Below, piece after piece: positions 10,737-63,580 of a stretch of DNA of 64,000 bases. The stretch spans positions 26,739-90,738 of the forward strand of contig JAFPUM010000034.1 of assembly GCA_017395425.1 (NCBI GenBank), read 5' to 3'. Every line of letters starts with the position of its first letter. Within the stretch, counting starts at the first letter, position 1. This DNA is from Clostridia bacterium (lineage in GTDB: Bacteria; Bacillota; Clostridia; Oscillospirales; Acutalibacteraceae). The position numbers and the translations under genes were made by a program. A model generated the notes under the pieces. That model did not search any database and was not told where the DNA came from. It saw only the letters and a list, made by a program, of their open reading frames with translations.

Positions 10737-12113
10737 ATGGAAACCATGACATTACGCGAAATCGCGGCGGCGCTGGGATGCCATCTCGATGTCTGTGCCG
10801 ACGCGGTCATTACGAATATCACCATCGACAGCCGGGAGGCGGGGGAGGGAACCCTCTTCTTCGCCATCAAGGGCGACCGGTTTGATGCGCACGATTTCGT
10901 GGGCGACGTCATCGCCAAAGGCGCGGCGGCTGCCGTGTGCAGCCGTCCCGTGGAAGGCGTACCGGAAGAGAAGCTCCTGTTGGTTGCCGATACGCGGCTG
11001 GCGTTTCTGGCGCTGGCGGCTTATTACCGTGCCAAATTTGACATTCCCGTGGTGGGTCTGACCGGTTCAGTGGGCAAGACCACCACCAAGGAAATGGTGG
11101 CGGCGGTACTTTCGCAGAAATACAATACCCTTGCCACGCAGGGGAATCTCAACAACGAAATCGGCTTGCCCAAGATGTGCTTCCGTCTCGACCGCAGCGT
11201 GGAAGCGGCGGTGCTGGAGATGGGCATGAGCGGCTTCGGCGAAATTTCCCGGCTGACCCGCACGGCGCGTCCGACCGTGGGCATTATTACCAATATCGGC
11301 GTGTGCCACATTGAAATGCTCGGCTCCCGCGAGGGCATACTTCGCGCCAAAATGGAAATACTGGAAGGGATGGACGAAACCGCGCCCCTGATCATCAACG
11401 GCGACAACGATCTGCTGCCGGAAGGCGTCAAGGGCATTCCAAACCCGGTGATTGTGTGCGGCATCGACTGTGAAAATGCCGACTGCCGTGCCGAGGAAAT
11501 CGTACAGGACAGCGACGCCATGCGCTTTGTGATCAACTGGCGCGGGCAGCGGTATCCCGTGACGCTCCCCGCCGTGGGCATTCACAATGTGTACAACGCC
11601 TGCATTGCCTTTGCCTGCGGAATGCTGCTGAGCGTAACACCGGAACAGGCGGTGAGCGGTCTGGCAGGGTATGTCCCCACGGGAATGCGGCAAAAGATTG
11701 TGCGGCGGAACGGCTATACCGTCATCGAGGACTGCTACAACGCCAGCCCCGATTCCATCAAAGCCTCGCTCCGCGTGCTGCGTGACATGGACTGTGCGCG
11801 GCGGATCGTGGTGCTGGGGGATATGAAGGAGCTGGGCGACTATTCCCGCACGGCGCATACCGAGTGCGGACGTGCGGCGGCGGAATGCGGGATTGACGTG
11901 CTGCTGGCTTACGGCGACGAAGCCAAAGGGTATGTCGAAGGCGCGGGAAGCGGTGTGCCGACGGTGCTGCACTTCGACGATAAACAGGCGCTTTGCCGGA
12001 AACTCTGTGAGATGCGGCAGGAGGGCGACGCCATACTGGTCAAAGCCAGCCGCGCCATGAAGATGGAAGAAGTCATTGCGGCGATTTACAATAGCGATGA
12101 AAATCAAGCATAA
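10737..12113 (+). CDS. murF: UDP-MurNAc-tripeptide:D-Ala-D-Ala ligase (MurF)
   Basis: GLTGSVGKTTTKEM P-loop. Conserved N-terminus METMTLREIAAAL at ATG 10737, with AGGAG at 10720-10724. Confidence 0.93.
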   Translation: METMTLREIAAALGCHLDVCADAVITNITIDSREAGEGTLFFAIKGDRFDAHDFVGDVIAKGAAAAVCSRPVEGVPEEKLLLVADTRLAFLALAAYYRAKFDIPVVGLTGSVGKTTTKEMVAAVLSQKYNTLATQGNLNNEIGLPKMCFRLDRSVEAAVLEMGMSGFGEISRLTRTARPTVGIITNIGVCHIEMLGSREGILRAKMEILEGMDETAPLIINGDNDLLPEGVKGIPNPVIVCGIDCENADCRAEEIVQDSDAMRFVINWRGQRYPVTLPAVGIHNVYNACIAFACGMLLSVTPEQAVSGLAGYVPTGMRQKIVRRNGYTVIEDCYNASPDSIKASLRVLRDMDCARRIVVLGDMKELGDYSRTAHTECGRAAAECGIDVLLAYGDEAKGYVEGAGSGVPTVLHFDDKQALCRKLCEMRQEGDAILVKASRAMKMEEVIAAIYNSDENQA

Positions 12114-12305
12114 TTAGCCGCGTTTTTTTCCCAGGCGGCGGGGATTCCAAAGGGACGAGTCCCTTTGGCAGGTCAAGGGCAGCGCCCTTGCAGGAACCGG
12201 GGCAGCGCCCCGGCAGGCAGCACAACGTGCTGCCGGGCGAATCGCGCTAAGATCAACAACGGGGAAGGGCGAATCCGGAAAAGCAACCCTCCCACAAAGA
12301 TTTTT
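12112..12305 (+). repeat. Multi-hairpin intergenic element, copy A
   Basis: Non-coding 190-nt insert between murF and mraY, collinear with 26607-26792. Hairpins at 12117-12139, 12147-12168, 12174-12190, 12197-12213 and 12216-12234. Confidence 0.8.
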
Positions 12306-12369
12306 TCCCCCCTACCCAAAATTGTAAAACATCAGAGAAATTAAAAAAACATAAGGATGGTAATGGCAA

Positions 12370-13392
12370 ATGATACAGGAATACATCAGCCTGCTGGCGG
12401 CGGCTATCTCATTCGGCACCACCGCGCTTCTGGGAAAGAAGGTCATACCGTGGCTGCACAAGCTCAAATACGGTCAGACCATCAAGGATATCGGTCCCAA
12501 GTGGCATGAGAAAAAGCAGGGTACGCCCACGATGGGCGGTATTATGTTTATCGCCGGTATTCTGGCGGCGTTTCTGGTGTGCCTGCCCATCTATCATCAT
12601 TTGCAGTCTATGGGACGGATTGCCTCCTATTATGAAAATCAGGCATATTGGCTCCGGATGGTGGCGGGCATTCTGATGTCGCTGCTGTTCGGCGCGATCG
12701 GATTCCTGGACGACTATATCAAGGTCGTCAAGAAGCAGAACGAAGGACTGACGCCCTCGCAGAAGATGATTCTGATGATGCTGATTGCGGGCGCCTATCT
12801 GCTGTCGATTGCGCTGATGGGCGACGCGACTGTCACCACGATTCCCTTCCTCGGCGATGTGGACGTTCATTTCTGGTTCTATCCCATTTCGCTGATTATG
12901 ATCGTGGGATTTGTCAACGCGGTCAATCTGACCGACGGCATTGACGGTCTTTGTTCCTCGGTGACGTTTTTCACCGCCATCATTTTCATGATGATTGCGG
13001 GTATGCGCCATATGTTCGGCATGAACATTTTCGCGGCGGCTGTGGCAGGCGGCTGTATCGGTTTTCTGGTGTGGAACTTCTTTCCCGCCAAGGTCTTTAT
13101 GGGTGACACCGGCTCGCTCTTTCTGGGCGGTCTGTTCTGCGCGATGGCGTACAGCCTGAATATGCCGATTCTCGTGCCGCTGGTGGGCATCATCTACCTC
13201 TGCGAAGCGGGCTCGGTGATGCTGCAGGTGTCGTATTTCAAGCTGACCCACGGCAAGCGTATTTTCAAGATGAGTCCGATTCATCATCACTTTGAGATGA
13301 GCGGCTGGAGCGAGGTCAAAATTGTATGGAGCTTCAGTCTGATTACCCTGATTGCGGGCGTGATTGCCGTGGCGCTGACGCTGTTCTGCTGA
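12370..13392 (+). CDS. mraY: Phospho-MurNAc-pentapeptide translocase (MraY)
   Basis: Polytopic membrane protein with NAVNLTDGIDGL and FMGDTGSL motifs. 340 aa. Confidence 0.95.
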   Translation: MIQEYISLLAAAISFGTTALLGKKVIPWLHKLKYGQTIKDIGPKWHEKKQGTPTMGGIMFIAGILAAFLVCLPIYHHLQSMGRIASYYENQAYWLRMVAGILMSLLFGAIGFLDDYIKVVKKQNEGLTPSQKMILMMLIAGAYLLSIALMGDATVTTIPFLGDVDVHFWFYPISLIMIVGFVNAVNLTDGIDGLCSSVTFFTAIIFMMIAGMRHMFGMNIFAAAVAGGCIGFLVWNFFPAKVFMGDTGSLFLGGLFCAMAYSLNMPILVPLVGIIYLCEAGSVMLQVSYFKLTHGKRIFKMSPIHHHFEMSGWSEVKIVWSFSLITLIAGVIAVALTLFC

Positions 13393-16257: not shown

Positions 16258-18363
16258 TTGTGGGGAGATGTGAATTACTTGGGAGGTAAAAAGAAAAAGA
16301 AGAACCGTATGAATACGAGCTATGCGGGCAAATCGGGCAAGTCGGTCAGAACGGGGGGAACCAATCCTTCGGTTCCCTCTGCGGCGCAGGATAAATATGC
16401 CAAATACGCGGGAGCGGTGAGCAATAAATCCAAGCGCAATTATGCCGATCTGCGGCTGGTCAGTCCCTCCGAACTGCGGGGGAATCCTGTTTCGTCGGTA
16501 CCGTCGGTTGCAAACGGCGGTACTAAAAAAACGCCGGGACAGCCCGTGAAGAGCAGCGGCGCCAAAAAGCCTTCGGGACAGCCCATGAAGAGCGGCAGTG
16601 CCAAGAAGCCTTCGGGACAGCCCGTGAAGAGCGGCAGTGCCAAGAAGCCTTCAGGACAGCCCGTGAAGAGCGGCAGTGCAAAAAAATCTTCGGGACAGCC
16701 CGTGAAGAGCGGCAGTGCCGGGAGCAGGAAACCGATCAGACAGCCCATGCACACCGTCTCCGGAAACATAACACAATCGGTGAATCAGCAGTTTCGCGGC
16801 GGCAAACGGGGGAACATCCAAAGAGCGCCATCCAAGCCATCCAAGCCCCATACCAGACCGACACCCGAAGTCAAAGCACCGGTATATGCCGACGACGAAT
16901 ACAGCCGTGCGCTGAACAATTCGGATTTTTACGGCGATCTGGTGGAAAAATATTACATCAAGTACCCCGAGAAGCAGGAGGAGCGCAAATCAGCTCCGGG
17001 GTCTGCGGCGGCAAGGGAACGTGCCGCGCGGCGCAAGGTGCGCAGAAGCCCGATGGAATCGGTGGTGAGTGAGGGCACCGCCAAAAAGGAAGGTCAAGCC
17101 AGGGACGCACGTCCCTCCATCGCGGAACTGGCGGTCAGAAACCGCGGCACCGATCGGAAAAAGCAGTACGCAAAGGTGGTCAAGACGGGTAAAGCAAAAG
17201 GCAGCATTCCCACGGGTTCGGTACATCGGAAAGTACGCCGCATCAACCGTCAGCGGAGCCTGTTTCTCTACGCGGCTTCGGCAGCGTCCGTGGTAGCGGT
17301 GCTGTGTTTTCTGTTTTTCTTCTGGGGATTCAAGGTCAAGCAGATTGTGGTAGAAGGTGAAACGCCTTACAGTGATAACCGCATTACCTCGCTCTGCGAT
17401 TTCACGCAGGGAGACAATCTGATGTTCATTGATACCGCCGTGTCGGAACGTCAGGTGGTGGAATCGCTGCCGTATGTGGAAACCTGTAAGGTGAAACGCG
17501 CCATTCCCCATTCAGTGGAAGTCAATGTAACCTGTGCGGTGCCGCTGGGTGTGGCGGAGGCAGGCAGTGCCGAATGGGTGATTGTGAGCACCAGCGGCAA
17601 GATTCTGGAAAGCGTTTCCGCGGCGGCGGTGGTGAGCGGAAGTGATCTGGGCGATACGGGTGTATCGACGGCATACACGGCGCAGGAACTGGCAGCCGCC
17701 CGGAAACTGCCGGTACTGGTAGGACTGGAGATGGATCAGGTCAATGTCGGCAGCTTTGTCAACGGCAGTTCCGTGGCAACGGTCAACGGTTTTGCCTGCA
17801 TCTATGAGGAAGCGCAGGCACTCGGTCTGACGCTGGATAAGCTCAAGTACACCGACCGGGGATATGAAGCGGAATATGACGGCAGAATCAATATCGTGCT
17901 GGGCGATACCGATGACCGCAGCATTATCCGGAAGCGACTGGAAATCATCCATCATATCATGTTCGTCAAGTGTGACATCAGCGAGCATGAACGGGGCGAG
18001 ATTACCTATCTGAAAAATCAGATTTTCTTCGATCCCACCTATGACTTCTCGGAAGAGGAACTCGCCAAGTATGCCGAAAAACAGGCAGCAAAACAGAAGA
18101 AAGAAAATTCCCTCGGCAAGCTGGGTGAAGCCGCCGTATCGCTGCTCGATGAAGGCGTGAGCCTGCTGCACCGGGAGAATACCACTACGGCAGCCACTAC
18201 CAAGACCACAGCCGCCAAGACTACGGCAGCCACTACGAAGACCACAGCCACTACCAAGACCACAGCCGCTACAGCGAAGATAACAACTGCTGCTGAAACC
18301 ACCACATCCGAAACCACCGCGGCACAAACGGCAGCATCCGCCACGACAGCGGCAGGGCAGTGA
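16258..18363 (+). CDS. ftsQ: FtsQ/DivIB-like cell division protein with a long repetitive N-terminal extension
   Basis: TM segment (LFLYAASAASVVAVLCFLFFFWGF) followed by a POTRA-like region (VKQIVVEGETPYSDNRITS...). In the position between murG and ftsZ. Start uncertain (16258 or ATG 16309). Confidence 0.75.
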   Translation: MWGDVNYLGGKKKKKNRMNTSYAGKSGKSVRTGGTNPSVPSAAQDKYAKYAGAVSNKSKRNYADLRLVSPSELRGNPVSSVPSVANGGTKKTPGQPVKSSGAKKPSGQPMKSGSAKKPSGQPVKSGSAKKPSGQPVKSGSAKKSSGQPVKSGSAGSRKPIRQPMHTVSGNITQSVNQQFRGGKRGNIQRAPSKPSKPHTRPTPEVKAPVYADDEYSRALNNSDFYGDLVEKYYIKYPEKQEERKSAPGSAAARERAARRKVRRSPMESVVSEGTAKKEGQARDARPSIAELAVRNRGTDRKKQYAKVVKTGKAKGSIPTGSVHRKVRRINRQRSLFLYAASAASVVAVLCFLFFFWGFKVKQIVVEGETPYSDNRITSLCDFTQGDNLMFIDTAVSERQVVESLPYVETCKVKRAIPHSVEVNVTCAVPLGVAEAGSAEWVIVSTSGKILESVSAAAVVSGSDLGDTGVSTAYTAQELAAARKLPVLVGLEMDQVNVGSFVNGSSVATVNGFACIYEEAQALGLTLDKLKYTDRGYEAEYDGRINIVLGDTDDRSIIRKRLEIIHHIMFVKCDISEHERGEITYLKNQIFFDPTYDFSEEELAKYAEKQAAKQKKENSLGKLGEAAVSLLDEGVSLLHRENTTTAATTKTTAAKTTAATTKTTATTKTTAATAKITTAAETTTSETTAAQTAASATTAAGQ
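16522..16716 (+). repeat. In-frame 39-bp tandem repeat x5 inside ftsQ
   Basis: Encodes (S/T)(A/K)KKPSGQP(V/M)KSG units. Copies start at 16522, 16561, 16600, 16639 and 16678. Confidence 0.9.
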
Positions 18364-25301: not shown

Positions 25302-26598
25302 AAGACTGCTGGCGCTGGCGTTGGCGGCAGCGCTGCTGGGGAGTGTATGTGCCTGCGGCAGCGGGAAACCATCGGGCGGCGTGAAGCTGTCGGACAGCAC
25401 GACGGAGCTGACCGCTCCTATCGTGCGCTCGAAAAAAGCATTGCGCGGGAAGCAGGATGACGGGCAGAAATATGGGTTTGACTGGCAATACTGGGGATTT
25501 TCCGCTGCCCTTCTGAGGAACGTCACCCGGCAGGACGGGGGTCGGGAAAATACCCTTGTGTCACCGCTGTCAGTGATGACAGCGCTGGCGATGACTGCCA
25601 ACGGCGCGTCGGGCGATACGCTCACCCAGATGGATATGGCACTGTGCGGAGATATGATCGCGCTCGACAGTATGAAGCCTTTGGATAGGGACGGGCGCAA
25701 TTCATGTCTGGGCGCGTATCTCGACAGTCTGCCGCACAGCGGTAAGGCGTCGCTCTCTTCCGCGAATTCTGTCTGGCTCAAAGAGGGCGCGCTGAACGTC
25801 AAAAAAGACTTTCTGCAAACCAATGTCGATGCCTACAACGCGCAGGTGTTTTCGACGGCGTTCGATGAGAATACCCGGAATGACATCAACCGCTGGGTAT
25901 CGCTCAGAACCGGCGGCAGAATTGAAAACATGCTGGACGACATTCATCCCAATGCTGTGATGTATCTCATCAACGCGCTGACCTTTGATGCGGAGTGGCA
26001 GGATATCTACCGCGAGGAACAGGTGTTCGACGGCGAGTTTACCGATATCGACGGCAAGGTGCAGACTGTACCTATGATGCGTTCGGAGGAAAGGGTCTAT
26101 CTGGACGACGGCATGGCGACCGGCTTTGTCAAGCCCTATGCGTCGGGCTACAAATTTGTGGCGATGGTGCCGAATGAGGGTGTGACGCTGCAAGAGTATG
26201 TGGAAAAACTGCCGGTTTTCCAGCTGTTCCCGCAGCTTCGCGAAGATGACGGCGAAACGGTGATGGTCAGCCTGCCGAAGTTCAGCGCGACGTATTCCGT
26301 GGAACTCAGCGACGCGCTGAAAGCGATGGGTATGACCGACGCCTTTGACCCCGGTAGAGCGGATTTCTCGGATATGGCGGACGCGAAACCGGATGATCTG
26401 TATATCGGGCGGGTGCTGCATCAGACCGCGATTGCGGTGGACGAGAAGGGTACCAAGGCAGGCGCGTCCACGGCGGTAGAAATGCTCACAAAAGGTGCCA
26501 TTTTGCGCACGGTTTTTCTTGACAGACCGTTCCTCTATATGATTGTGGACGAAGACAATGGGCTGCCGGTCTTTATCGGACAGGTGACGCATTTTTAG
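25279..26598 (+). CDS. Serpin (serine protease inhibitor), predicted lipoprotein
   Basis: Lipoprotein signal MKHQKICKRLLALALAAALLGSVCAC. Serpin hinge and reactive-centre loop EKGTKAGASTAVEMLTKGAILRTVFLDRPF. The track ORF from 25159 was trimmed to ATG 25279 (or 25273). Overlaps the rluA 3' end by about 23 nt. Confidence 0.85.
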   Translation: MKHQKICKRLLALALAAALLGSVCACGSGKPSGGVKLSDSTTELTAPIVRSKKALRGKQDDGQKYGFDWQYWGFSAALLRNVTRQDGGRENTLVSPLSVMTALAMTANGASGDTLTQMDMALCGDMIALDSMKPLDRDGRNSCLGAYLDSLPHSGKASLSSANSVWLKEGALNVKKDFLQTNVDAYNAQVFSTAFDENTRNDINRWVSLRTGGRIENMLDDIHPNAVMYLINALTFDAEWQDIYREEQVFDGEFTDIDGKVQTVPMMRSEERVYLDDGMATGFVKPYASGYKFVAMVPNEGVTLQEYVEKLPVFQLFPQLREDDGETVMVSLPKFSATYSVELSDALKAMGMTDAFDPGRADFSDMADAKPDDLYIGRVLHQTAIAVDEKGTKAGASTAVEMLTKGAILRTVFLDRPFLYMIVDEDNGLPVFIGQVTHF

Positions 26599-26606
26599 AG
26601 AAGCCC

Positions 26607-26792
26607 AATTAGCCGCGCAGCGGCGCGGGGTGCAGGGGGTGAGCTCCCTGCCGAGGTCAAGGGCGAGTAGCCCTTGCAGGGGACCGGGGGCAGCGCCACC
26701 GGTAGGCAGGCGGAAGCCTGCCGAGCGAGATGAGTCAAGATCTATAACGGGGTCGGGCGAATTCTTTAACAGAACCCTCCCAAACAGATTTC
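26607..26792 (+). repeat. Multi-hairpin intergenic element, copy B
   Basis: Collinear with 12112-12305. Hairpins at 26613-26628, 26632-26651, 26658-26676, 26684-26702 and 26705-26722. Confidence 0.8.
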
Positions 26793-26804
26793 TCCGACAA
26801 CCAT

Positions 26805-26833
26805 TTGACGTGGAGAAATGCCTGTGCTATAAT
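26805..26833 (+). promoter_or_regulatory. Candidate promoter of the PHP phosphatase gene
   Basis: -35 TTGACG (26805-26810), extended -10 TGcTATAAT (26825-26833), 17-nt spacing between the hexamers. Confidence 0.6.
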
Positions 26834-26869
26834 CAAAAAGCGATACGTTAAGGAAAGAAGCCGATCACC

Positions 26870-27670
26870 ATGAATCTTTTAAAAATCCCCTGTGACTGTC
26901 ATCTGCACACCGACAATTCGTTTGACAGCGAAACCCCCGCCGCGCTTCAGGTGGCAAGAGCGCGGGAACTGGGCATTCCGTATATTGCGCTGACCGATCA
27001 TTGCGATATTCTCGAATGGAGCGACGCGAATATTGCCAGATCCAACGCGCAGGCGATGGAACTCAACGCCCTGTATGACGACATCACCGTGCTGCGGGGT
27101 ATCGAACTCGGAGAACCGCTGCAGGATATGGACGAAACGTCCCGCGCGCTGGGGCTCTGTGAGTACGATTTCGTGCTTTGCTCGCTGCACAACATTCAGG
27201 GCGAGGAAGATTTTTATTACCTCCACCCCGATCGTTCGCAGGCTGCCGAATTGGTCAGGCGGTATTTTGAAGAACTGTTGGAAATGGTGAAGTGGAACCA
27301 GTTCGATTCCCTCGCCCATCTGACCTATCCCTTGCGCTACATCACCGAGCGGGACGGCGTGCCGGTGGATATGACACCTTACCTGCCCATCATCCGTGAA
27401 ATTTTAGCCACTCTCGCCGCGAACGGCAAGGCGCTGGAAATCAATACCTCCGGTTTGCGCAACCCCGACGGTATGCTGCTGCCGACGGGGGATTATGTGG
27501 AACTGTTCCGCCGGCTGGGGGGACGTTATATCACCCTCGGCAGCGACGCTCACACGCCGGAGCATCTGGCGGTGGGCATGGCGGAAGGCATCGCCGCCGC
27601 GAAGGAAGCGGGCTTTACGGCTGTGACGGTTTTCATCAACCGGCAGCCCGTGGAGATACCGTTTGCGTGA
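26870..27670 (+). CDS. Histidinol-phosphatase, PHP (HisJ) family
   Basis: CDCHLHTDNSFDS metal-binding start, later LTDH and GSDAH motifs typical of PHP phosphoesterases. 266 aa. Confidence 0.8.
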   Translation: MNLLKIPCDCHLHTDNSFDSETPAALQVARARELGIPYIALTDHCDILEWSDANIARSNAQAMELNALYDDITVLRGIELGEPLQDMDETSRALGLCEYDFVLCSLHNIQGEEDFYYLHPDRSQAAELVRRYFEELLEMVKWNQFDSLAHLTYPLRYITERDGVPVDMTPYLPIIREILATLAANGKALEINTSGLRNPDGMLLPTGDYVELFRRLGGRYITLGSDAHTPEHLAVGMAEGIAAAKEAGFTAVTVFINRQPVEIPFA

Positions 27671-27758
27671 CCATTACACAAATCCCCTGTTGCAATCCGG
27701 CGGGGAAAATGATATAATAGGCAGGAAAGTAAATCACGGGGTAAGGAGTGACACGCGA

Positions 27759-35470: not shown

Positions 35471-36520
35471 ATGAGCAGCACAAACAGTTACAGCAAAAGC
35501 TACAAGGAAGCGGGCGTGGATGTAACCGCCGGCTATCGCTCGGTGGAACTCATCAAGGAACACGTCGCACGCACCAATATCCCCGGCGTGGTTTCGGGCA
35601 TCGGGGGGTTCGGCGGACTTTTTGAGCCGGACTTCTCCGGCATGAAGACTCCCACGCTGGTATCCGGCACCGATGGCGTCGGCACCAAGCTGAAAATCGC
35701 GTTCCTCATGGACAAGCATGATACCGTGGGTATCGACTGCGTTGCCATGTGCGCCAACGACGTGGCGTGCAGCGGCGCCCAGCCGCTTTTCTTCCTCGAC
35801 TATCTGGCGGTGGGCAAGAATATCCCCGAAAAAATCGCGGAGATTGTCAGCGGCGTGGCGGAAGGCTGCGTGCAGGCGGGCTGCGCGCTGATCGGCGGCG
35901 AAACCGCCGAAATGCCCGGCTTCTATCCGCCGGAAGAATATGACCTCGCGGGCTTCTGCGTAGGTCTGGCGGATAAGGAAAAGATCGTGGACTGTGCCAA
36001 TGTCAAGGCGGGTGATACCCTGATCGGCGTGGCTTCCACGGGACTGCACTCCAACGGCTTTTCGCTGGTGCGCTCCACCCTGCGTCCGAGCGCGCAGAAT
36101 ATCCGCACCCACATCGACGAATTCGGCAAGACGCTGGGCGAGGAATTGATTACCCCCACGCGAATTTATGTCAAGTCGGTGCTGGCGCTCCAGCAGGCTG
36201 TGAAGGTACACGGCATTTCCAATATCACGGGCGGCGGCTTCTATGAGAACATTCCGCGTATGCTGCCCGACGGTCTGATGGCGCGTGTGGAGCGCAAGAC
36301 CGTCAAGGTGCTGCCGGTGTTTGACTATATCCAGAAGATGAGCGACGGGAAGATTGACGATCACGATATGTTCAACACCTTCAACATGGGCGTGGGACTG
36401 GTGGTCGCGGTTGACCCGAGTGAGGTTGACGTCGCTATTGCCACGCTGAAAGCCAGCGGTGAGGACGCGTATGTCATCGGCGAAGTGATTCACGGCACCG
36501 AGGGTGTGAAGATATGCTGA
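35471..36520 (+). CDS. purM: AIR synthetase (PurM)
   Basis: [14 protein letters not shown] and GGETAEMPG motifs. 349 aa. Confidence 0.95.
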
Positions 36521-37155
36521 AAACCAAACACATCGCGGTCTTTGTATCGGGCGGCGGTACCAACCTGCAAGCCCTGATTGACGCACAGGCGCGCGGCGAA
36601 ATCAAGTACGGCGAGATTACCTTTGTCCTTGCCAGCAATGACAGGGCATACGCGATCGAACGCGCCAGGAAAGCCGGTATCGAATACGAAGTGGTATCCC
36701 GCAAGGCATACGCTGACAGCGAAGCATACGACGCGGCGATTCTCGCCGCGCTGGAACACCGGAGCATTGACCTCATTGTGCTGGCGGGATTCCTCTCCAT
36801 TCTCGGACCCTCCGTCATTGAGAAATACCGCAACCGGATTATCAATATTCATCCCTCCCTGATACCGCTCTTCTGCGGCGACGGCTTTTACGGCAAGAAG
36901 GTACACACCGCCGTACTCGCGAGCGGCATGAAGGTAACGGGCGCGACGGCGCACTTCGTCAACGAAATCACCGACGGCGGCGCGATTATCCTGCAAAAGG
37001 CGGTTCCCATCGAGCAGGGCGACAACGAGGATATTCTGCAATACCGCGTGATGCGGCAGGCGGAGTGGGAGATACTGCCCAAAGCGGTGAGCCTTTTCTG
37101 TGAGGAACGGATACGGATTGACGGAAACCGGACAGAAATAGTGAATAATGAATAG
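36514..37155 (+). CDS. purN: GAR formyltransferase (PurN)
   Basis: [23 protein letters not shown] and GATAHFV motifs. Start overlaps the purM end. The last codons (IVNNE) and the stop lie in the heptad repeat. Confidence 0.93.
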
Positions 37156-37197
37156 TGAAGAGCGAATAATGAATAATGTCGGAAGTCCTTCGGACTT
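37140..37197 (+). repeat. 7-nt tandem repeats plus hairpin (locus 1)
   Basis: AGTGAAT AATGAAT AGTGAAG AGCGAAT AATGAAT AATGTCG (37140-37181), then hairpin AAGTCC-TTC-GGACTT (37183-37197). Confidence 0.85.
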
Positions 37198-37227
37198 GAA
37201 TAGATAGAACATAAAGGAGCGTTTGTT

Positions 37228-40068: not shown

Positions 40069-40117
40069 AGTGAATGGTGAATAATGAATAGTGAATAATG
40101 GCGGAGCGCTGCGCGCT
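40069..40117 (+). repeat. 7-nt tandem repeats plus hairpin (locus 2)
   Basis: AGTGAAT GGTGAAT AATGAAT AGTGAAT AATGGCG (40069-40103), then hairpin AGCGC-TGC-GCGCT (40105-40117). Shares the 19-mer GTGAATAATGAATAGTGAA with locus 1. Confidence 0.85.
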
Positions 40118-42016: not shown

Positions 42017-45000
42017 ATGAGAAAGAAACTCGTTGTGGCGCTGGCGCTGGTGCTGGCGTTGACAAGTGCGGCGGCATTGCCGACATACACCGCCTATCTG
42101 CCGACGGTGTGTGCCGCGAGTACGAACAGCGGTGATTTTCAGATTGAAAAGGGCGTGCTGGTCAATTACACGGGCGAAGCCAAAGAAGTGGTGATTCCGA
42201 GCAGTGTCACCGCCATCGGGGAAAGGGCATTCAGTTACTGCACCACCGTGGAGAAAGTGACTATTCCCAACACAGTCAAGACCATCGGCGACGGCGCGTT
42301 TGCGTATTGCTACGAGCTGGAGAGCGTCACGATTCCGGGTTCCGTCACGTCGATCGGTGCGGAGGCGTTTACTTATACGGAACTGAAGCAGGTGACGCTG
42401 CCCGATTCGGTCAAGACCGTCGGCAACAACGCCTTTGAAGGCTGCCGTATGATGACGCAGGTGACCTTGCCGGGCACGATGACCGATATCCCCGTCGGAA
42501 TGTTTTACAACTGCATCAATCTCCCAAGCGTGACGCTTCCCAAAAATACCAAAACGATTGGCGCAAACGCCTTTTTCGGCTGCGGCGTGCTGCGGGATAT
42601 CACGCTGCCGTCCTCCGTCAAATCCATCGGCGGGAGCGCGTTCAGCGGGTGCGCCTGCCTCACCGATATCGTGATTCCAAGCGCCGTCACCCGCATTGAG
42701 GACGGCACGTTCCACGGCTGTACGAGACTGAAAAGCGTGACGGTTCCCGATTCCGTGACCTATATCGGTCGGAACGCTTTCAGCGACTGCTGGGAACTGA
42801 CAAGCCTGCCGATTCCCAAAGGGGTCACGTCGATTGACGGCGCGTTTCAGCAGTGCTACGCGCTGACTGACGTGACGGTTCCCGCCTCGGTCACGTCGAT
42901 GAATGACGCGTTTGCGTCCTGCACCGGTCTGAAAACCGTCCGCCTTTCGTCCGGTGTCAGGTCGCTGGACGGCGCGTTCAGCGGTTGCGAGAGCCTGACG
43001 GGTGTTACGATTCCCCAAGGGGTTACTTCCCTCGGCAACTACACCTTTTACAACTGCCGCAGTCTGACCGGCTTGACGGTTCCCGATTCCGTGACATCGG
43101 TCGGTATCTGGGCATTCAGCGGCTGCACCGGTCTGACCGACCTCGTGCTGCCGGACAGCGTAACCACCGTGGACAGTTACGCGTTCAGCGGGTGCAGCAA
43201 TCTGAAACATATCACCCTCTCCAAAAAGCTCACATCGCTCGGCGGCGGCGCGTTTGAATATTGCGCGGCGCTGACCGATGTAAACATCCCGAAGTCGCTC
43301 ACTGTCATTGAAGACGGTATGTTTGCGGGCTGCAAGGGTCTGACAAGCGTGACGATTCCGAACACCATCACCTCTGTCGGCGGGGGAGCGTTTAAGGGGT
43401 GCGGCAGTCTGACTTCTATCACATTGCCCGCTTCCGTCAAATCGCTGGGGAGCAACACGTTTTACGGGTGCGGCAATCTGACAAGCGTGACGCTTCCTGA
43501 TTCCGTGACGAACATTCCGGGCGGAATGTTCGGACAGTGTAAAAAACTTACAAATGTGACGATTCCGTCCGGTGTCACCTCCATCGGCAGCTGGGCGTTT
43601 GAGGATTGCAGAGGCATCAGGAGCCTGACCATTCCGAAATCCGTGAAGAGTCTCGGAGACGGCGCGTTTGCGGGCTGTACCGGGTTGACGGGTATTACGG
43701 TTCCCGCGTCGGTGACGACGCTGCCGGACAGCGTGTTCGCCGGCTGTCTGAACCTGACAAGCGTGAAGCTGGCGGGCAATGTCACGTCCATCGGCAGTTT
43801 TGCTTTCAGCGAATGCAGCAATCTGATGAACTTTACGATACCCGGCACGGTGAAATCCGTCGGCATGTATGCCTTCAACCGATGCAGCACTTTGACGAGC
43901 ATGACGGTGCCGGATGCCGTAAAAACCGTGGAAGACGGCACGTTCTACAACTGTTTCCGCATGACCCGCGTGACGCTACCCAAATCCGTGACGCAGATCG
44001 AATACGACGCGTTTATGGGAACGGGGTTGGAAAACGTATTCTACGCCGGTTCCGAGAGCCAGTGGAAGGGTATTTCCATCAGCGCCGGCAACAATCGGCT
44101 GGTCAACGCCAAGAAATACTACAACGGCAAGACGATTCCCGAAATCGTGATTACCGCGCACCCGGCGGATGTGCAGGGCAAGCTCGGGGAGGCTGTCTCC
44201 ATGCAGGTCAAGGCGACCGGCAGCGGACTGACCTATCAGTGGCAGCTGAGTGACGACGGCGGCAAGACGTGGCGGGACAGCTCGGTGAAAACCGCGCGTT
44301 ATGACACGACGCTCACCGAGAAGAATGACGGACGGTTCGTCCGCTGCGTGCTGACCGACAGTTACGGCAGCAAGCTCATCACCAAGAGCGCGACCATGAA
44401 AATCAACACGCTGGAAATCACCCGCCAGCCTGTCAGCGTGACCGTCCCATACGGCGCGGCGGTGTCCTTCCGCGTCAAGGCGGTGGGTCTTGATGTGAAG
44501 TATCAATGGCAGCTCAGCGATGACAGCGGGAAAACATGGCGCAACAGCTCCGTGCAGACGGCGGATTACAGTACCACGCTCACCGAAAAGAACGCGGGAC
44601 GCTGCGTCCGCTGTGTCGTCACCGACAAAGACGGCAGGCAGCTGATTTCCGACACCGCGTCCATGAATCCCGACGGTGTGACCATCACCGCACAGCCTTC
44701 CGACAGCAAGGTCAGATTCGGCGGCACGGTTTCCTTTGCGGTCAAGGCGACCGGCGGCAAGCTTGCCTACCAGTGGCAGCTCAGCGACGACGCGGGCAAG
44801 ACGTGGCGGAACAGTTCCGTGAAGACCGCCAATTATCAGACCACACTCAGCGAAAAGAATATCGGTCGGTATGTCCGCTGCGTTGTCACCAACCCGGGCG
44901 GCGCGACAGCGACTTCCCAAGCCGCCGTTATGCGGCTGGACGGTGTGGGAATTACATTACAGCCCGCAGACAGCAAAGCGTCTATCGGCGGAAAAGTGTC

Positions 45001-45211
45001 CTTCCGCGTCAAGGCAGTGGGCGAGGGTCTGATTTATCAGTGGCAGCTCAGTGATGACGCGGGCAAGACGTGGCGCAACAGTTCCGTGAAGACCGCGACG
45101 TATGGAACTACCCTGACGGACAAAAACAACGGCAGATCTGTCCGCTGCATAGTGACGGACAAATACGGCCATCAGGCAATTTCCAAAACCGGGGTCATGA
45201 GGGTGAAGTAA
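42017..45211 (+). CDS. Secreted BspA-type leucine-rich-repeat protein with four C-terminal Ig-like repeats
   Basis: Signal peptide (MRKKLVVALALVLALTSAAA). About 26 units of the pattern LTSVTIPxSVTSIGxxAFxxC. Then 4 x 89 aa units with a YQWQLSDDxGKTWR core. No LPXTG or TM at the C-terminus. Confidence 0.85.
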   Translation: MRKKLVVALALVLALTSAAALPTYTAYLPTVCAASTNSGDFQIEKGVLVNYTGEAKEVVIPSSVTAIGERAFSYCTTVEKVTIPNTVKTIGDGAFAYCYELESVTIPGSVTSIGAEAFTYTELKQVTLPDSVKTVGNNAFEGCRMMTQVTLPGTMTDIPVGMFYNCINLPSVTLPKNTKTIGANAFFGCGVLRDITLPSSVKSIGGSAFSGCACLTDIVIPSAVTRIEDGTFHGCTRLKSVTVPDSVTYIGRNAFSDCWELTSLPIPKGVTSIDGAFQQCYALTDVTVPASVTSMNDAFASCTGLKTVRLSSGVRSLDGAFSGCESLTGVTIPQGVTSLGNYTFYNCRSLTGLTVPDSVTSVGIWAFSGCTGLTDLVLPDSVTTVDSYAFSGCSNLKHITLSKKLTSLGGGAFEYCAALTDVNIPKSLTVIEDGMFAGCKGLTSVTIPNTITSVGGGAFKGCGSLTSITLPASVKSLGSNTFYGCGNLTSVTLPDSVTNIPGGMFGQCKKLTNVTIPSGVTSIGSWAFEDCRGIRSLTIPKSVKSLGDGAFAGCTGLTGITVPASVTTLPDSVFAGCLNLTSVKLAGNVTSIGSFAFSECSNLMNFTIPGTVKSVGMYAFNRCSTLTSMTVPDAVKTVEDGTFYNCFRMTRVTLPKSVTQIEYDAFMGTGLENVFYAGSESQWKGISISAGNNRLVNAKKYYNGKTIPEIVITAHPADVQGKLGEAVSMQVKATGSGLTYQWQLSDDGGKTWRDSSVKTARYDTTLTEKNDGRFVRCVLTDSYGSKLITKSATMKINTLEITRQPVSVTVPYGAAVSFRVKAVGLDVKYQWQLSDDSGKTWRNSSVQTADYSTTLTEKNAGRCVRCVVTDKDGRQLISDTASMNPDGVTITAQPSDSKVRFGGTVSFAVKATGGKLAYQWQLSDDAGKTWRNSSVKTANYQTTLSEKNIGRYVRCVVTNPGGATATSQAAVMRLDGVGITLQPADSKASIGGKVSFRVKAVGEGLIYQWQLSDDAGKTWRNSSVKTATYGTTLTDKNNGRSVRCIVTDKYGHQAISKTGVMRVK
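44141..45208 (+). repeat. Four in-frame 267-bp tandem repeats (Ig-like modules)
   Basis: 1068 nt equals 4 x 89 codons. Each unit carries YQWQLSDD(G/S/A)GKTWR and VRCV(L/V)T. Confidence 0.85.
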
Positions 45212-46296: not shown

Positions 46297-46439
46297 CGCC
46301 GTTCCGCATATTCTGACGGTGGAAAATAAACCGTCAATCGTGAATCTTTCACAATTATGCCGGTGATGTTTTGGACAATTGTGTGGTTTTCACGGTTGAC
46401 AAATTTTCCACCGTATGATTTAATAATATAAGTCAGAAA

Positions 46440-46600
46440 TCAGCGCCTGCCCCTGACCTTGATAGGGTTCAAAAAAATTGTCAGGGGGACGAGGATGGAA
46501 GTTTATCGAAAGATTCGGCGGATGCTTCCCGGCTTGACAGAGGAGCTGCCATCCGGCACACAAATCCCGCGGGCAACGGCGGGGACAAACGTGCCGGAAC
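46440..46600 (+). ncRNA. glmS leader: glmS ribozyme (GlcN6P-responsive self-cleaving riboswitch)
   Basis: A|GCGCC cleavage-site context at 46442/46443. Core GACGAGGATGGAAGTTTATCGAAAGATTCGGCGGATGCTTCCCGGCT closely matches the conserved glmS core. GGCG (46517-46520) can pair with CGCC (46444-46447). P4-like CCGGCAC (46553-46559) pairs with GTGCCGG (46591-46597). Immediately upstream of glmS. Confidence 0.85.
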
Positions 46601-46627
46601 TCTGTGATACAATGGAGGTACTTATCT

Positions 46628-62735: not shown

Positions 62736-63428
62736 GTGAGAAAAAGAAAGATAAAAAAATTGCCGGCATATTTTATTGTGCCGGTAATTTTTGCTGTTTT
62801 GGGATACGGTGTGTTGAGAGTGGCATTGACACCCGTATGGGAACTGGGCATGGCGGCGGCTTCCATGATGCTGCTGGAGGATGCCCCCAATTTTTATCCG
62901 GAACTGACTACCACCTATGACCCCGATGCCCTGAAAGCTGCCAAGACGGAAGAAAAATGGATTAATGCCGCCGATGTGACGCTCCCGCGTCATGGCGAGC
63001 ATTACGGCAAACTGATGTGCGAGCGCATCGGACTGAGCGCGCCGGTCTACTGGGGCGATGAAAACCGCATTCTGCGCAGCGGCGCGGGACAGTACGAGAT
63101 CAGCTCCCTGCCGGGATTCGGTGAGCCGATCATTATCTGCGCTCATAACACAACGTTTTTCCGTCCGCTGAAGAAGGCGGAAAAGGATGATGTGATTGTG
63201 TTCGATACCAATTACGACACCTACCGCTATCAGGTGACGGAGGTGTCGGTTCTGGAAGAAAAGGAACTGGCTAAAACATTTGACACGCTGCTGACCGCGA
63301 GCGACAGCGAGGAAACGCTGCTGCTGTATACCTGCTATCCCTTCCATGCCATTTCCGGACGCAAGACCAAACGGTTTTGTGTCTTTGGCAAGCGCATTGA
63401 AGGCGCGGACGTGAAATGGGGTGCGTAA
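62736..63428 (+). CDS. Sortase family transpeptidase
   Basis: N-terminal TM anchor, catalytic His (IICAHNT), Cys (LLLYTCYPF) and Arg (KRFCVFGKR). GTG start, with GGAG 7 nt upstream. Confidence 0.8.
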   Translation: MRKRKIKKLPAYFIVPVIFAVLGYGVLRVALTPVWELGMAAASMMLLEDAPNFYPELTTTYDPDALKAAKTEEKWINAADVTLPRHGEHYGKLMCERIGLSAPVYWGDENRILRSGAGQYEISSLPGFGEPIIICAHNTTFFRPLKKAEKDDVIVFDTNYDTYRYQVTEVSVLEEKELAKTFDTLLTASDSEETLLLYTCYPFHAISGRKTKRFCVFGKRIEGADVKWGA

Positions 63429-63472
63429 CATTGGCGGAAAAAAAGAAGACGACGCATCATCATACGTCGGGA

Positions 63473-63562
63473 AGCAGTCATTCGCATAGCAGAAGCCATT
63501 CGCATAGCAGAAGCCATTCGCACAGTGGTAGCAGTCATTCGCACAGCACCAGCCATTCTCAC
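63473..63562 (+). repeat. In-frame degenerate 15-21-nt tandem repeats encoding (S/H)-rich units
   Basis: AGCAGTCATTCGCAT / AGCAGAAGCCATTCGCAT / AGCAGAAGCCATTCGCAC / AGTGGTAGCAGTCATTCGCAC / AGCACCAGCCATTCTCAC. Confidence 0.85.
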
Positions 63563-63580
63563 AGCGGAGGAACCTCCAAG

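Follow-up and report, generated by a model that had tools for sequence, protein, structure and literature searches.

A hairpin array behind a serpin gene

Within the window (the whole 64,000 nt stretch of DNA that was analyzed), a serpin ORF (Pfam Serpin, 6e-83) ends with a TAG codon at 26596-26598 and is followed by an array of short hairpins, termed copy B. Downstream of the array is a sigma-70-type promoter at 26805-26833 (TTGACG-17-TATAAT with an upstream TG, 11/12 matches) that precedes a gene for a PHP-domain protein. A first-pass annotation, made from the sequence, had reported this stop codon, a strong promoter downstream and five hairpins between them. Both signals are where it placed them, and direct reading together with a hairpin scan confirmed the five hairpins at their positions. 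In the same scan, arrays of at least three units occur 0-1 times per shuffled 64 kb window.

Copy B is composed of two conserved boxes, the hairpins H1 to H5 and a tail hairpin (Table 1), with its bounds defined by where conservation with two further copies, A and C, starts and stops. A covariance model built on nine copies (R1) matches it at 26622-26765 with 110.4 bits (E 1e-30). H3 is the module with the highest sequence conservation (AGGTCAAGGGC..GCCCTTGC), and 98% of its alignment cells are paired. The position of H1 is occupied in other copies by GCG(G)AGCG repeats instead (alignment A2). For the 3' box, the family consensus is GAGCGAGACGCGCTAAGA-N12-GGGCGAAT, of which the CGCU and GGCG halves are able to pair (columns 152-155 with 175-178 in RNAalifold), and a sixth conserved stem of the family is located in the tail.

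Table 1. Features of copies B and A in the window.
Feature	Position	Strand	Description	Score, energy or basis
Copy B, whole element	26607..26797	+	5' box, H1-H5, 3' box, tail hairpin, ending ...AGATTTCTCC	family alignment A2
5' box AATTAG	26607..26612	+	opens family head (A)ATTAGCG(A/G)AGCG	conserved 5' edge in A, B, C, D2, D3, E1
H1 CCGCGC-AGCG-GCGCGG	26613..26628	+	A/B subfamily only	-10.7 kcal/mol
H2 GCAGGGGG-TGAG-CTCCCTGC	26632..26651	+	8 bp including one G-U	-13.3 kcal/mol
H3 CAAGGGC-GAGTA-GCCCTTG	26658..26676	+		-11.7 kcal/mol; hairpin scan
H4 CCGGGGGC-AGC-GCCACCGG	26684..26702	+	one G-A mismatch	-9.8 kcal/mol
H5 GGCAGGC-GGAA-GCCTGCC	26705..26722	+		-14.3 kcal/mol
3' box GAGCGAGATGAGTCAAGA ... 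GGGCGAAT	26723..26762	+		conserved columns in alignments A2/A3
Tail hairpin GGGGTCGGG / CCCTCCC	26749..26781	+	then AAACAGATTTCTCC without U-tract; A/B/C subfamily	
Copy A	12112..12316	+	between murF (stop TAA 12111-12113) and mraY (start 12370)	135 bits with R1
Copy A hairpins	12147-12168, 12174-12190, 12196-12214, 12216-12234	+		

The copy B region also contains a 73-aa ORF (26630-26851), which had been judged to be the element read through. The frame is not coding: copies differ in length by amounts that three does not divide, such as the 46 nt that separate copy B from its orthologue. No gene is called in this region on the source contig, and none of nine element copies carries a called ORF.

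The window holds other repeats. Tandem 7 nt repeats (TGAATAA/TGAATAG) lie at 37136-37178 and 40072-40100 (+), with 8 matches compared with 1.4 expected. These runs put stop codons in all three frames, one of them begins at the stop codon of a purN-like gene, and the motif is also present inside a related element (copy D2, L174 ~10825-10870). A 1064-aa ORF at 42017-45211, whose product is probably a surface protein, contains degenerate repeats at 42290-43980 spaced at multiples of 69 nt (23 aa, leucine-rich-repeat-like) and four 267 nt tandem repeats at 44150-45160. Short in-frame tandem repeats with 39 nt and 18 nt units are located in coding regions at 16495-16719, 18184-18273 and 63452-63568.

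Copies, modules and wider relatives

The second array recognized by the first-pass annotation, copy A, is a true paralogue of copy B: the segment at 12106-12303 is 71% identical to it with gaps (E = 4e-21 within the window). As judged by Pfam assignment of the flanking genes, copy A sits in the dcw operon (murF|mraY) and copy C between hisH and hisF (his). A promoter-like site, TTTACA-18-CATAAT (10/12 matches; 12085-12114, +), overlaps with the 5' box of copy A as well as with the stop codon of murF, and a transcript could start at the element from there. A candidate third copy in the window (63074-63113) is in coding DNA, has no covariance-model match and was dismissed as chance, and a hairpin cluster at 35868-35934 is likewise coding DNA.

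The window lies on a 117 kb scaffold assembled from an animal-gut metagenome. Its nearest reference is the MAG CAMJHU01, labeled 'uncultured Clostridia bacterium', which is 93-98% identical over the regions compared. Farther relatives carry the labels Clostridia, Oscillospiraceae, Ruminococcaceae or Acutalibacteraceae, and the window DNA is matched mainly in bovine and other gut metagenomes. A scan of species-representative genomes with the tail pattern returned 45 loci, of which 4 are real. All of these are in one MAG and comprise orthologues of A (98% identical) and B together with the third copy, C; the remaining loci are chance matches in GC-rich genomes.

Further copies were recovered from the neighborhoods of PHP homologues (76-90% protein identity), where they occupy non-orthologous sites. 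In locus L174, D1 follows the gene of an ABC-3 permease, D2 the PHP gene and D3 the gene of a formyltransferase, while D4 is truncated and antisense. L176 carries E1, L179 carries G1, and L180 carries an inverted pair (F1L/F1R) along with three weaker copies. At L180 11922-12321, two full copies are arranged tail-to-tail between two minus-strand genes, forming an inverted repeat of ~400 nt around a perfect bidirectional terminator-like hairpin. The copies of relatives score 38-148 bits with R1, with one weak L180 copy at 23 bits, and after dereplication 14 copies are found with R1 in this species and in relatives with a 76-90% identical PHP protein. R1 found no match in five 21 kb dcw loci of relatives. 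Local density ranges from 2 copies per 64 kb in the window to 4 per 21 kb in L174.

Contig depth, summed in each of three DNA metagenomes, is ~200-1400 over the element compared with 6-19 on unique flanks, an excess of 20-80x that pools related species, and contigs break inside the element. This depth indicates that the family is highly repeated in these communities, with related species counted together. Copy B belongs to a modular, interspersed repeat that is present in multiple copies in an uncultured lineage of rumen and gut Clostridia.

An alignment of ten copies (A2/A3) reveals the plan of the element: a head that begins (A)ATTAGCG.., two to five hairpins, and a tail of the form GAGCGAGACGCGCTAAGA..GGGCGAAT. 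The head consensus is (A)ATTAGCG(A/G)AGCG..GGGAG. Typical modules are TCCAGGGGG/CCTCCTGG for H2, GGTCAAGGGC/GCCCTTGC for H3 and GTGGGGC/GCCCCAC for H4, while H5 is variable and the A/B/C subfamily has an extra GGGG..GGG/CCCTCCC stem. Five hairpins, which had been taken to define the element, are present in copy B, but the number is not fixed. The orthologue B' in MAG CAMJHU01 (L020) has three (H1-H3) and is 46 nt shorter, without H4 and H5, and a metatranscriptome contig carries the same short form. Also, F1R is without H3, and D2 has a duplicated head and an AT-rich insert. The tail stretch of B' differs from that of copy B and resembles those of A and C, which suggests exchange between copies. 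In the best-supported picture, units would turn over through slippage or recombination. The units differ from each other and abut with linkers of 1-7 nt, and since they are neither identical nor separated by spacers, the array was rejected as a CRISPR array.

The H2-H3(-H4) module is 80-90% identical in other element families on rumen and human-gut contigs, as listed by a metagenome scan with the H3 pattern, and the H3 module recurs in many contigs of gut Clostridia. R1 aligns with these wider relatives along the whole of the model, scoring 35-67 bits. Pfam was used to verify the flanking genes, and on this basis the relatives among the matches listed are found co-oriented and 3' of genes (L091a, L091b, L096, L062, L065 and L143), antisense (L149, in a permease/amylase gap; L072, mreB/mreC; L106, after glycogen phosphorylase; and L167) or between divergent genes (L055, L077, L114 and L085). 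At least ~20 of the matches listed are chance hits inside coding DNA. A further 53 of at least 124 listed belong to one relaxase-bearing element that has only the H3 hairpin in common with the family and scores 16-20 bits with R1. That element (for example L058 5422 and 2785, L068 and L120, on human-gut contigs) has, in at least two places per element, an exact AGGTCAAGGGCGCAGCCCTTGC hairpin with a long terminator-like hairpin after it. It has a relaxase-like motif downstream and is found at no fewer than 53 loci among the matches listed.

Three other arrangements among the relatives deserve description. A 112 nt unit, CACGCGGACA..AACTCAATCGCGAAAA-GGGAG-[H2][H3]-CTCCC, holds the H2-H3 pair inside a closing stem, is often tandem (on human-gut contigs: L062 8150-8470, L075 8042-8268, L161 4560-4800 and L143 1600-1785), lies after genes just before the ribosome-binding site of the next gene, and has no Rfam match. 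In L106 (9284-9486, minus strand), three and a half tandem 47 nt units with two alternating hairpins (TCCAGAGGC.. and GGTCAAGGGC..) lie antisense just after the glycogen phosphorylase gene. The relative at L085 599-778 (minus strand) is between divergent genes for ACT-domain and PHP-domain proteins, with a promoter-like TGnTATAAT site ~30 nt upstream and two terminal terminator-like hairpins; judged by these signals, it looks like a free-standing small transcription unit.

Structure, transcription and insertion sites

The hairpins have been maintained through compensatory change. Across four hairpins (31 pairs, 274 cells), 89% of cells form standard pairs, compared with 40-54% when the 3' partners are slid. 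Thirteen of the 31 pairs carry changes in both partners, and values as high as these were not reached in any of 500 shuffles, with the reservation that the copies are related, so that the number of independent events is overstated. Such double changes affect 4 of 10 pairs in H2, 4 of 7 in H4 and 4 of 7 in H5, with several different pair types in each of these hairpins. RNAalifold independently recovers the same stems and adds a weak closing helix (GGAG/CUCC) and the invariant CGCU/GGCG stem of the 3' box. Furthermore, G-U combinations occupy 16 cells compared with 2 for A-C, and in eight of nine copies the sense strand yields a more stable fold than the antisense strand (by a mean of 8.2 kcal/mol). 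These results support the conclusion that the hairpins are selected as structure on the sense strand. The strand asymmetry fits a sense RNA, but it could equally reflect single-stranded DNA during transposition. The conservation of the 3' box, which is largely invariant, and that of the H3 sequence hint at a partner with sequence specificity, for which the explanation favored below makes no provision.

The available RNA data are assembled, unstranded metatranscriptome contigs of depth 2-7, in which DNA carry-over is possible. Contigs run from the 3' end of murF into H2 of copy A (11988-12164), from H5 into mraY (12222-12521) and from the 3' end of the serpin gene into H3 (26524-26664), and the contig with the short B' form continues to 26845, beyond the promoter. 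Because these contigs span the joins between elements and genes, they indicate, subject to possible DNA carry-over, that the elements are transcribed with their neighbors and that some read-through occurs. RNA depth over the hairpins is ~8-15x that of the flanks, which is below the DNA peak. The RNA peak thus reflects copy number, shows no sign of a stable RNA accumulating, and was rejected as evidence for one.

A transcript-level role, as proposed in the first-pass annotation, gains from the compensatory changes, the G-U excess and the sense-strand stability, and from the joint transcription of copies A and B with their upstream genes. The more specific suggestion of termination or insulation fares poorly. 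No terminator-like site (stem plus U-tract) was found in 26300-27100 or within copy A, whose T-run lies 7 nt beyond the tail stem. Copies A and C are located inside operons, where an efficient terminator would be harmful and counter-selected, and RNA contigs run from the element into mraY. The element is not a canonical terminator or insulator.

Comparison of occupied and empty sites reveals insertion polymorphism. The murF-mraY spacer is 256 nt long in the window compared with 51-85 nt, free of the element, in relatives with 81-89% identical MraY (L168, L169 and L171). The empty site of the L174 copy D2 corresponds to window positions 27665-27681, and that of D3 to 37104-37210. At the right junction of D2, which is exact, GGGCGAA is followed by TCCCCTGTTGCAA.., the host promoter. 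This promoter is found in the filled and the empty form alike, and so it is part of the host, not of the element. At the left junction, D2 takes the place of the last codons of the upstream gene and brings its own stop codon, the TAG within AATTAG. In copy C, too, the upstream gene ends on the TAG of the 5' box, and in copy A the stop TAA directly precedes TTAG. L176 has neither D1 nor the adjacent gene of the PDDEXK_2 family (Rpn-like nuclease/transposase), which in L174 (1985-2929, +) lies directly downstream of D1.

No terminal inverted repeats were found in the element, and the head and tail show no inverted repeat beyond a possible 4-6 bp TTAGCG/CGCTAA, which is invariant and is broken in B and C. 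No clear target-site duplication was found: several copies have AAT/ATT at either end, and the empty D2 site has it once, but the pattern is not consistent. Among the called genes of the fetched loci, which cover part of the genome, no partner transposase, Y1 or RAYT gene was found. As DNA, the element is dispersed and probably mobilized in trans, a mobility that we propose from the pattern of presence and absence.

Of the 14 close copies, 10 immediately follow the 3' end of a gene with the same orientation. Another 2 (D4, and F1L as the partner of F1R) are antisense, and the remaining 2 are between divergent genes. A ratio of 10 to 2 would be unlikely if orientation were random (one-sided binomial p ~0.02). 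In nine of the ten co-oriented copies the element starts 0-22 nt from the stop codon, and in one the distance is ~62 nt. Element-free spacers are ~50-110 nt long and consist mostly of promoter or ribosome-binding site, and with spacers this compact, selection may suffice to explain the stop-adjacent position without targeting.

The rule that copies lie co-oriented and 3' of genes therefore holds for most close copies, but the antisense and divergent exceptions make it a bias rather than a law. Other orientations and positions, which the first-pass annotation had named as counterevidence to its reading, were thus found in part; structural covariation, whose absence it had also counted against that reading, is present. 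Its view that a transcript-level role fits better than a mobile DNA element does not stand, given the dispersed non-orthologous sites, the clean empty sites, the metagenomic depth of the element relative to its flanks, and the antisense and divergent copies. PHP genes have an array upstream in four cases: the window, L174 (antisense), L180 (weak) and L085. Since these arrays do not agree in orientation or position, and the protein of L085 has only 28% identity, we treated a link with the downstream PHP gene as coincidence and did not retain it.

Known repeats and alternative explanations

The BOX repeats of Streptococcus pneumoniae consist of boxA, a number of boxB modules and boxC, differ among strains in the number of modules, and show enrichment on the downstream side of genes (Croucher et al., 2011; PMC3049150). 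The clostridial repeat resembles BOX in having a conserved head and tail with variable tandem modules between them, whose number varies among strains at one locus. Both are intergenic, co-transcribed, enriched 3' of genes, predicted to form stem-loops, and without a transposase of their own. Unlike BOX, the clostridial element contains different short hairpins (H2-H5) rather than copies of one 45 nt boxB, revealed no terminal inverted repeat of the boxA/boxC type, starts almost at the stop codon and sometimes supplies it, and resides in uncultured rumen and gut Clostridia. To our knowledge, the two have no sequence in common. We treat the clostridial repeat as an analogue of BOX rather than as a member.

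REP elements and BIMEs protect upstream mRNA from 3' exonucleases and cause partial attenuation, with BIMEs attenuating transcription in operons (PMC3049150). Like those of enterobacteria and pseudomonads, the clostridial arrays consist of clustered imperfect palindromes, GC-rich and ~20-35 nt long, which lie in intergenic DNA that is transcribed and is often part of an operon. In contrast to the alternating inverted Y and Z units of REP/BIME, all hairpins here are direct and head-to-tail, their stem feet carry no GTAG-type tetranucleotide, the boxes bracket the whole array, and no RAYT was seen in the fetched loci.

Pneumococcal SPRITE and similar terminator-like repeats are also co-oriented near gene 3' ends and form a stem-loop on transcription, and related L055-type elements carry terminator-like hairpins; A, B and C differ in having no long stem with a U-rich tract, and two of them are inside operons. 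MITEs such as Correia, ERIC and RUP are similarly short, non-coding, multi-copy, co-transcribed and polymorphic for presence, and can alter ORF 3' ends. Intact empty sites of the kind expected for MITEs are found here (A absent in L168/L169/L171, D2 and D3 in the window, D1 in L176). In contrast to MITEs, the clostridial element revealed neither terminal inverted repeats nor a consistent target-site duplication, and its length varies through modular hairpins.

Searches of Rfam 15 at gathering and permissive thresholds gave no relevant match on the window, copies A and B, 14 related loci or L174. A hit of copy B to Clostridiales-2 (16.8 bits compared with a gathering score of 58.6) did not recur and was discarded. 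The only Rfam hit in the window is a glmS ribozyme/riboswitch (RF00234, 100.8 bits; 46431-46608, +) just upstream of a 611-aa ORF that starts at 46604, which is ordinary for Firmicutes. Four element patterns had 0 matches in viral contigs, plasmid records had no match, and the phage set gave only partial H2-H3 matches on unannotated faecal virome contigs. We found no description of such a repeat in these bacteria in the full-text literature. The family thus appears to be undescribed, while its kind, small interspersed composite repeats, is familiar.

On balance, we favor with moderate confidence the explanation that copy B is a mosaic interspersed repeat, similar to BOX and BIME, that is tolerated behind stop codons, with movement and effects on RNA that are both proposed. 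Conserved 5' and 3' boxes flank a variable array of independent GC-rich stem-loops whose units are gained, lost and exchanged among copies. Such an element may spread, or have spread in the past, to new intergenic sites by a trans-acting route, and it persists chiefly in the short gap that separates a stop codon from the following promoter or ribosome-binding site. There it would be carried on the upstream mRNA, either at the 3' end or between cistrons, and its sense strand would be expected to fold into a row of stable hairpins. By analogy with the systems above, this row may block 3'-to-5' exonucleases and so stabilize the upstream segment, with at most partial attenuation of read-through; the likely role is probably that of an mRNA 3'-exonuclease barrier or weak attenuator. 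Each of the rival explanations fails to account for at least one observation, and only a dedicated terminator or insulator is clearly disfavored.

It is unlikely, but not far-fetched, that the repeat is a purely selfish DNA element whose hairpins serve single-stranded-DNA transposition of the REP/RAYT or IS200/IS605 type, with its orientation bias arising from replication direction and no role in RNA. Insertion polymorphism, structure favored on one strand, and termini that resemble the IS200/IS605 type in having neither inverted repeats nor a clear target duplication would all be expected. In Firmicutes, most genes point in the direction of replication, and an orientation tied to replication would therefore look like co-orientation with genes. 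The part of the genome that is visible holds no Y1 transposase or RAYT gene, which is weak evidence against this explanation. Also against it are the head-to-tail hairpins, which have no conserved 5' GTAG of the REP type and are not inverted pairs, and the starts of nine of ten co-oriented copies close to a stop codon, for which selection on transcripts together with compact spacers is simpler.

We consider it rather improbable that the copies form a functional structured RNA family, for example one that binds proteins, acts as a sponge or is processed into a 3'-UTR sRNA. In that case the hairpins and the 3' box would serve for specific binding, and the copies would be genes, or modules attached to genes, and not parasites. 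The strong covariation with its sense-strand bias, the invariant 3' box and the conservation of the H2-H3 pair in human-gut elements are consistent with such a family. So is L085, with its promoter-like site and terminal hairpins between divergent genes, as are several other relatives between divergent genes that have no upstream gene to supply transcription. However, no promoter was found upstream of L055 or L114 and none that is convincing for copy B, which leaves L085 as the only good case. The hairpins vary freely in number and identity, even from strain to strain, copies are gained and lost at non-orthologous sites, RNA is not enriched above copy number, and there is no Rfam match.

A bolder form of this explanation, which we regard as a speculative outside chance, holds that H2-H3(-H4) and the invariant 3' box (CGCU..GGGCGAAU) constitute an unrecognized, widespread functional RNA domain of gut and rumen Oscillospirales-like Clostridia. 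The domain would be present both in free-standing sRNA genes (L085-type, with their own promoter and terminators) and in post-stop cassettes, and would act by binding a particular protein, for instance an RNase, a chaperone or a sponge target.

Least probable of all is a dedicated terminator or insulator that stops transcription or insulates the serpin gene from the PHP gene's own promoter: the position between a stop codon and a strong promoter, the co-orientation of most copies with the upstream gene, the terminator-looking A-run/stem/T-run hairpins that end L055-type elements, and the sigma-70-type promoter 20-45 nt after each of D1, D2 and B fit this idea, but copy B has no stem with a U-tract, A and C are inside operons, RNA contigs pass from H5 of A into mraY and from the short B to 26845, the promoter after D2 is the host's, and antisense copies exist.

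A mosaic interspersed repeat of the kind that we favor opens no new mechanistic category. Small interspersed repeats are well catalogued in a few cultured pathogens and barely in uncultured rumen and gut Clostridia. Because this family breaks short-read assemblies, makes spurious ORFs such as the 73-aa frame and sometimes supplies the host stop codon, its recognition aids the assembly and annotation of MAGs. The variable number of units could serve as a strain marker, as in BOX. If the functional RNA domain outlined above were real, the repeat would be a mobile post-transcriptional control module rather than a set of passive stem-loops. If the hairpins stabilize upstream mRNA, the repeat would give rise to heritable, strain-variable differences in expression within core operons such as dcw and his.
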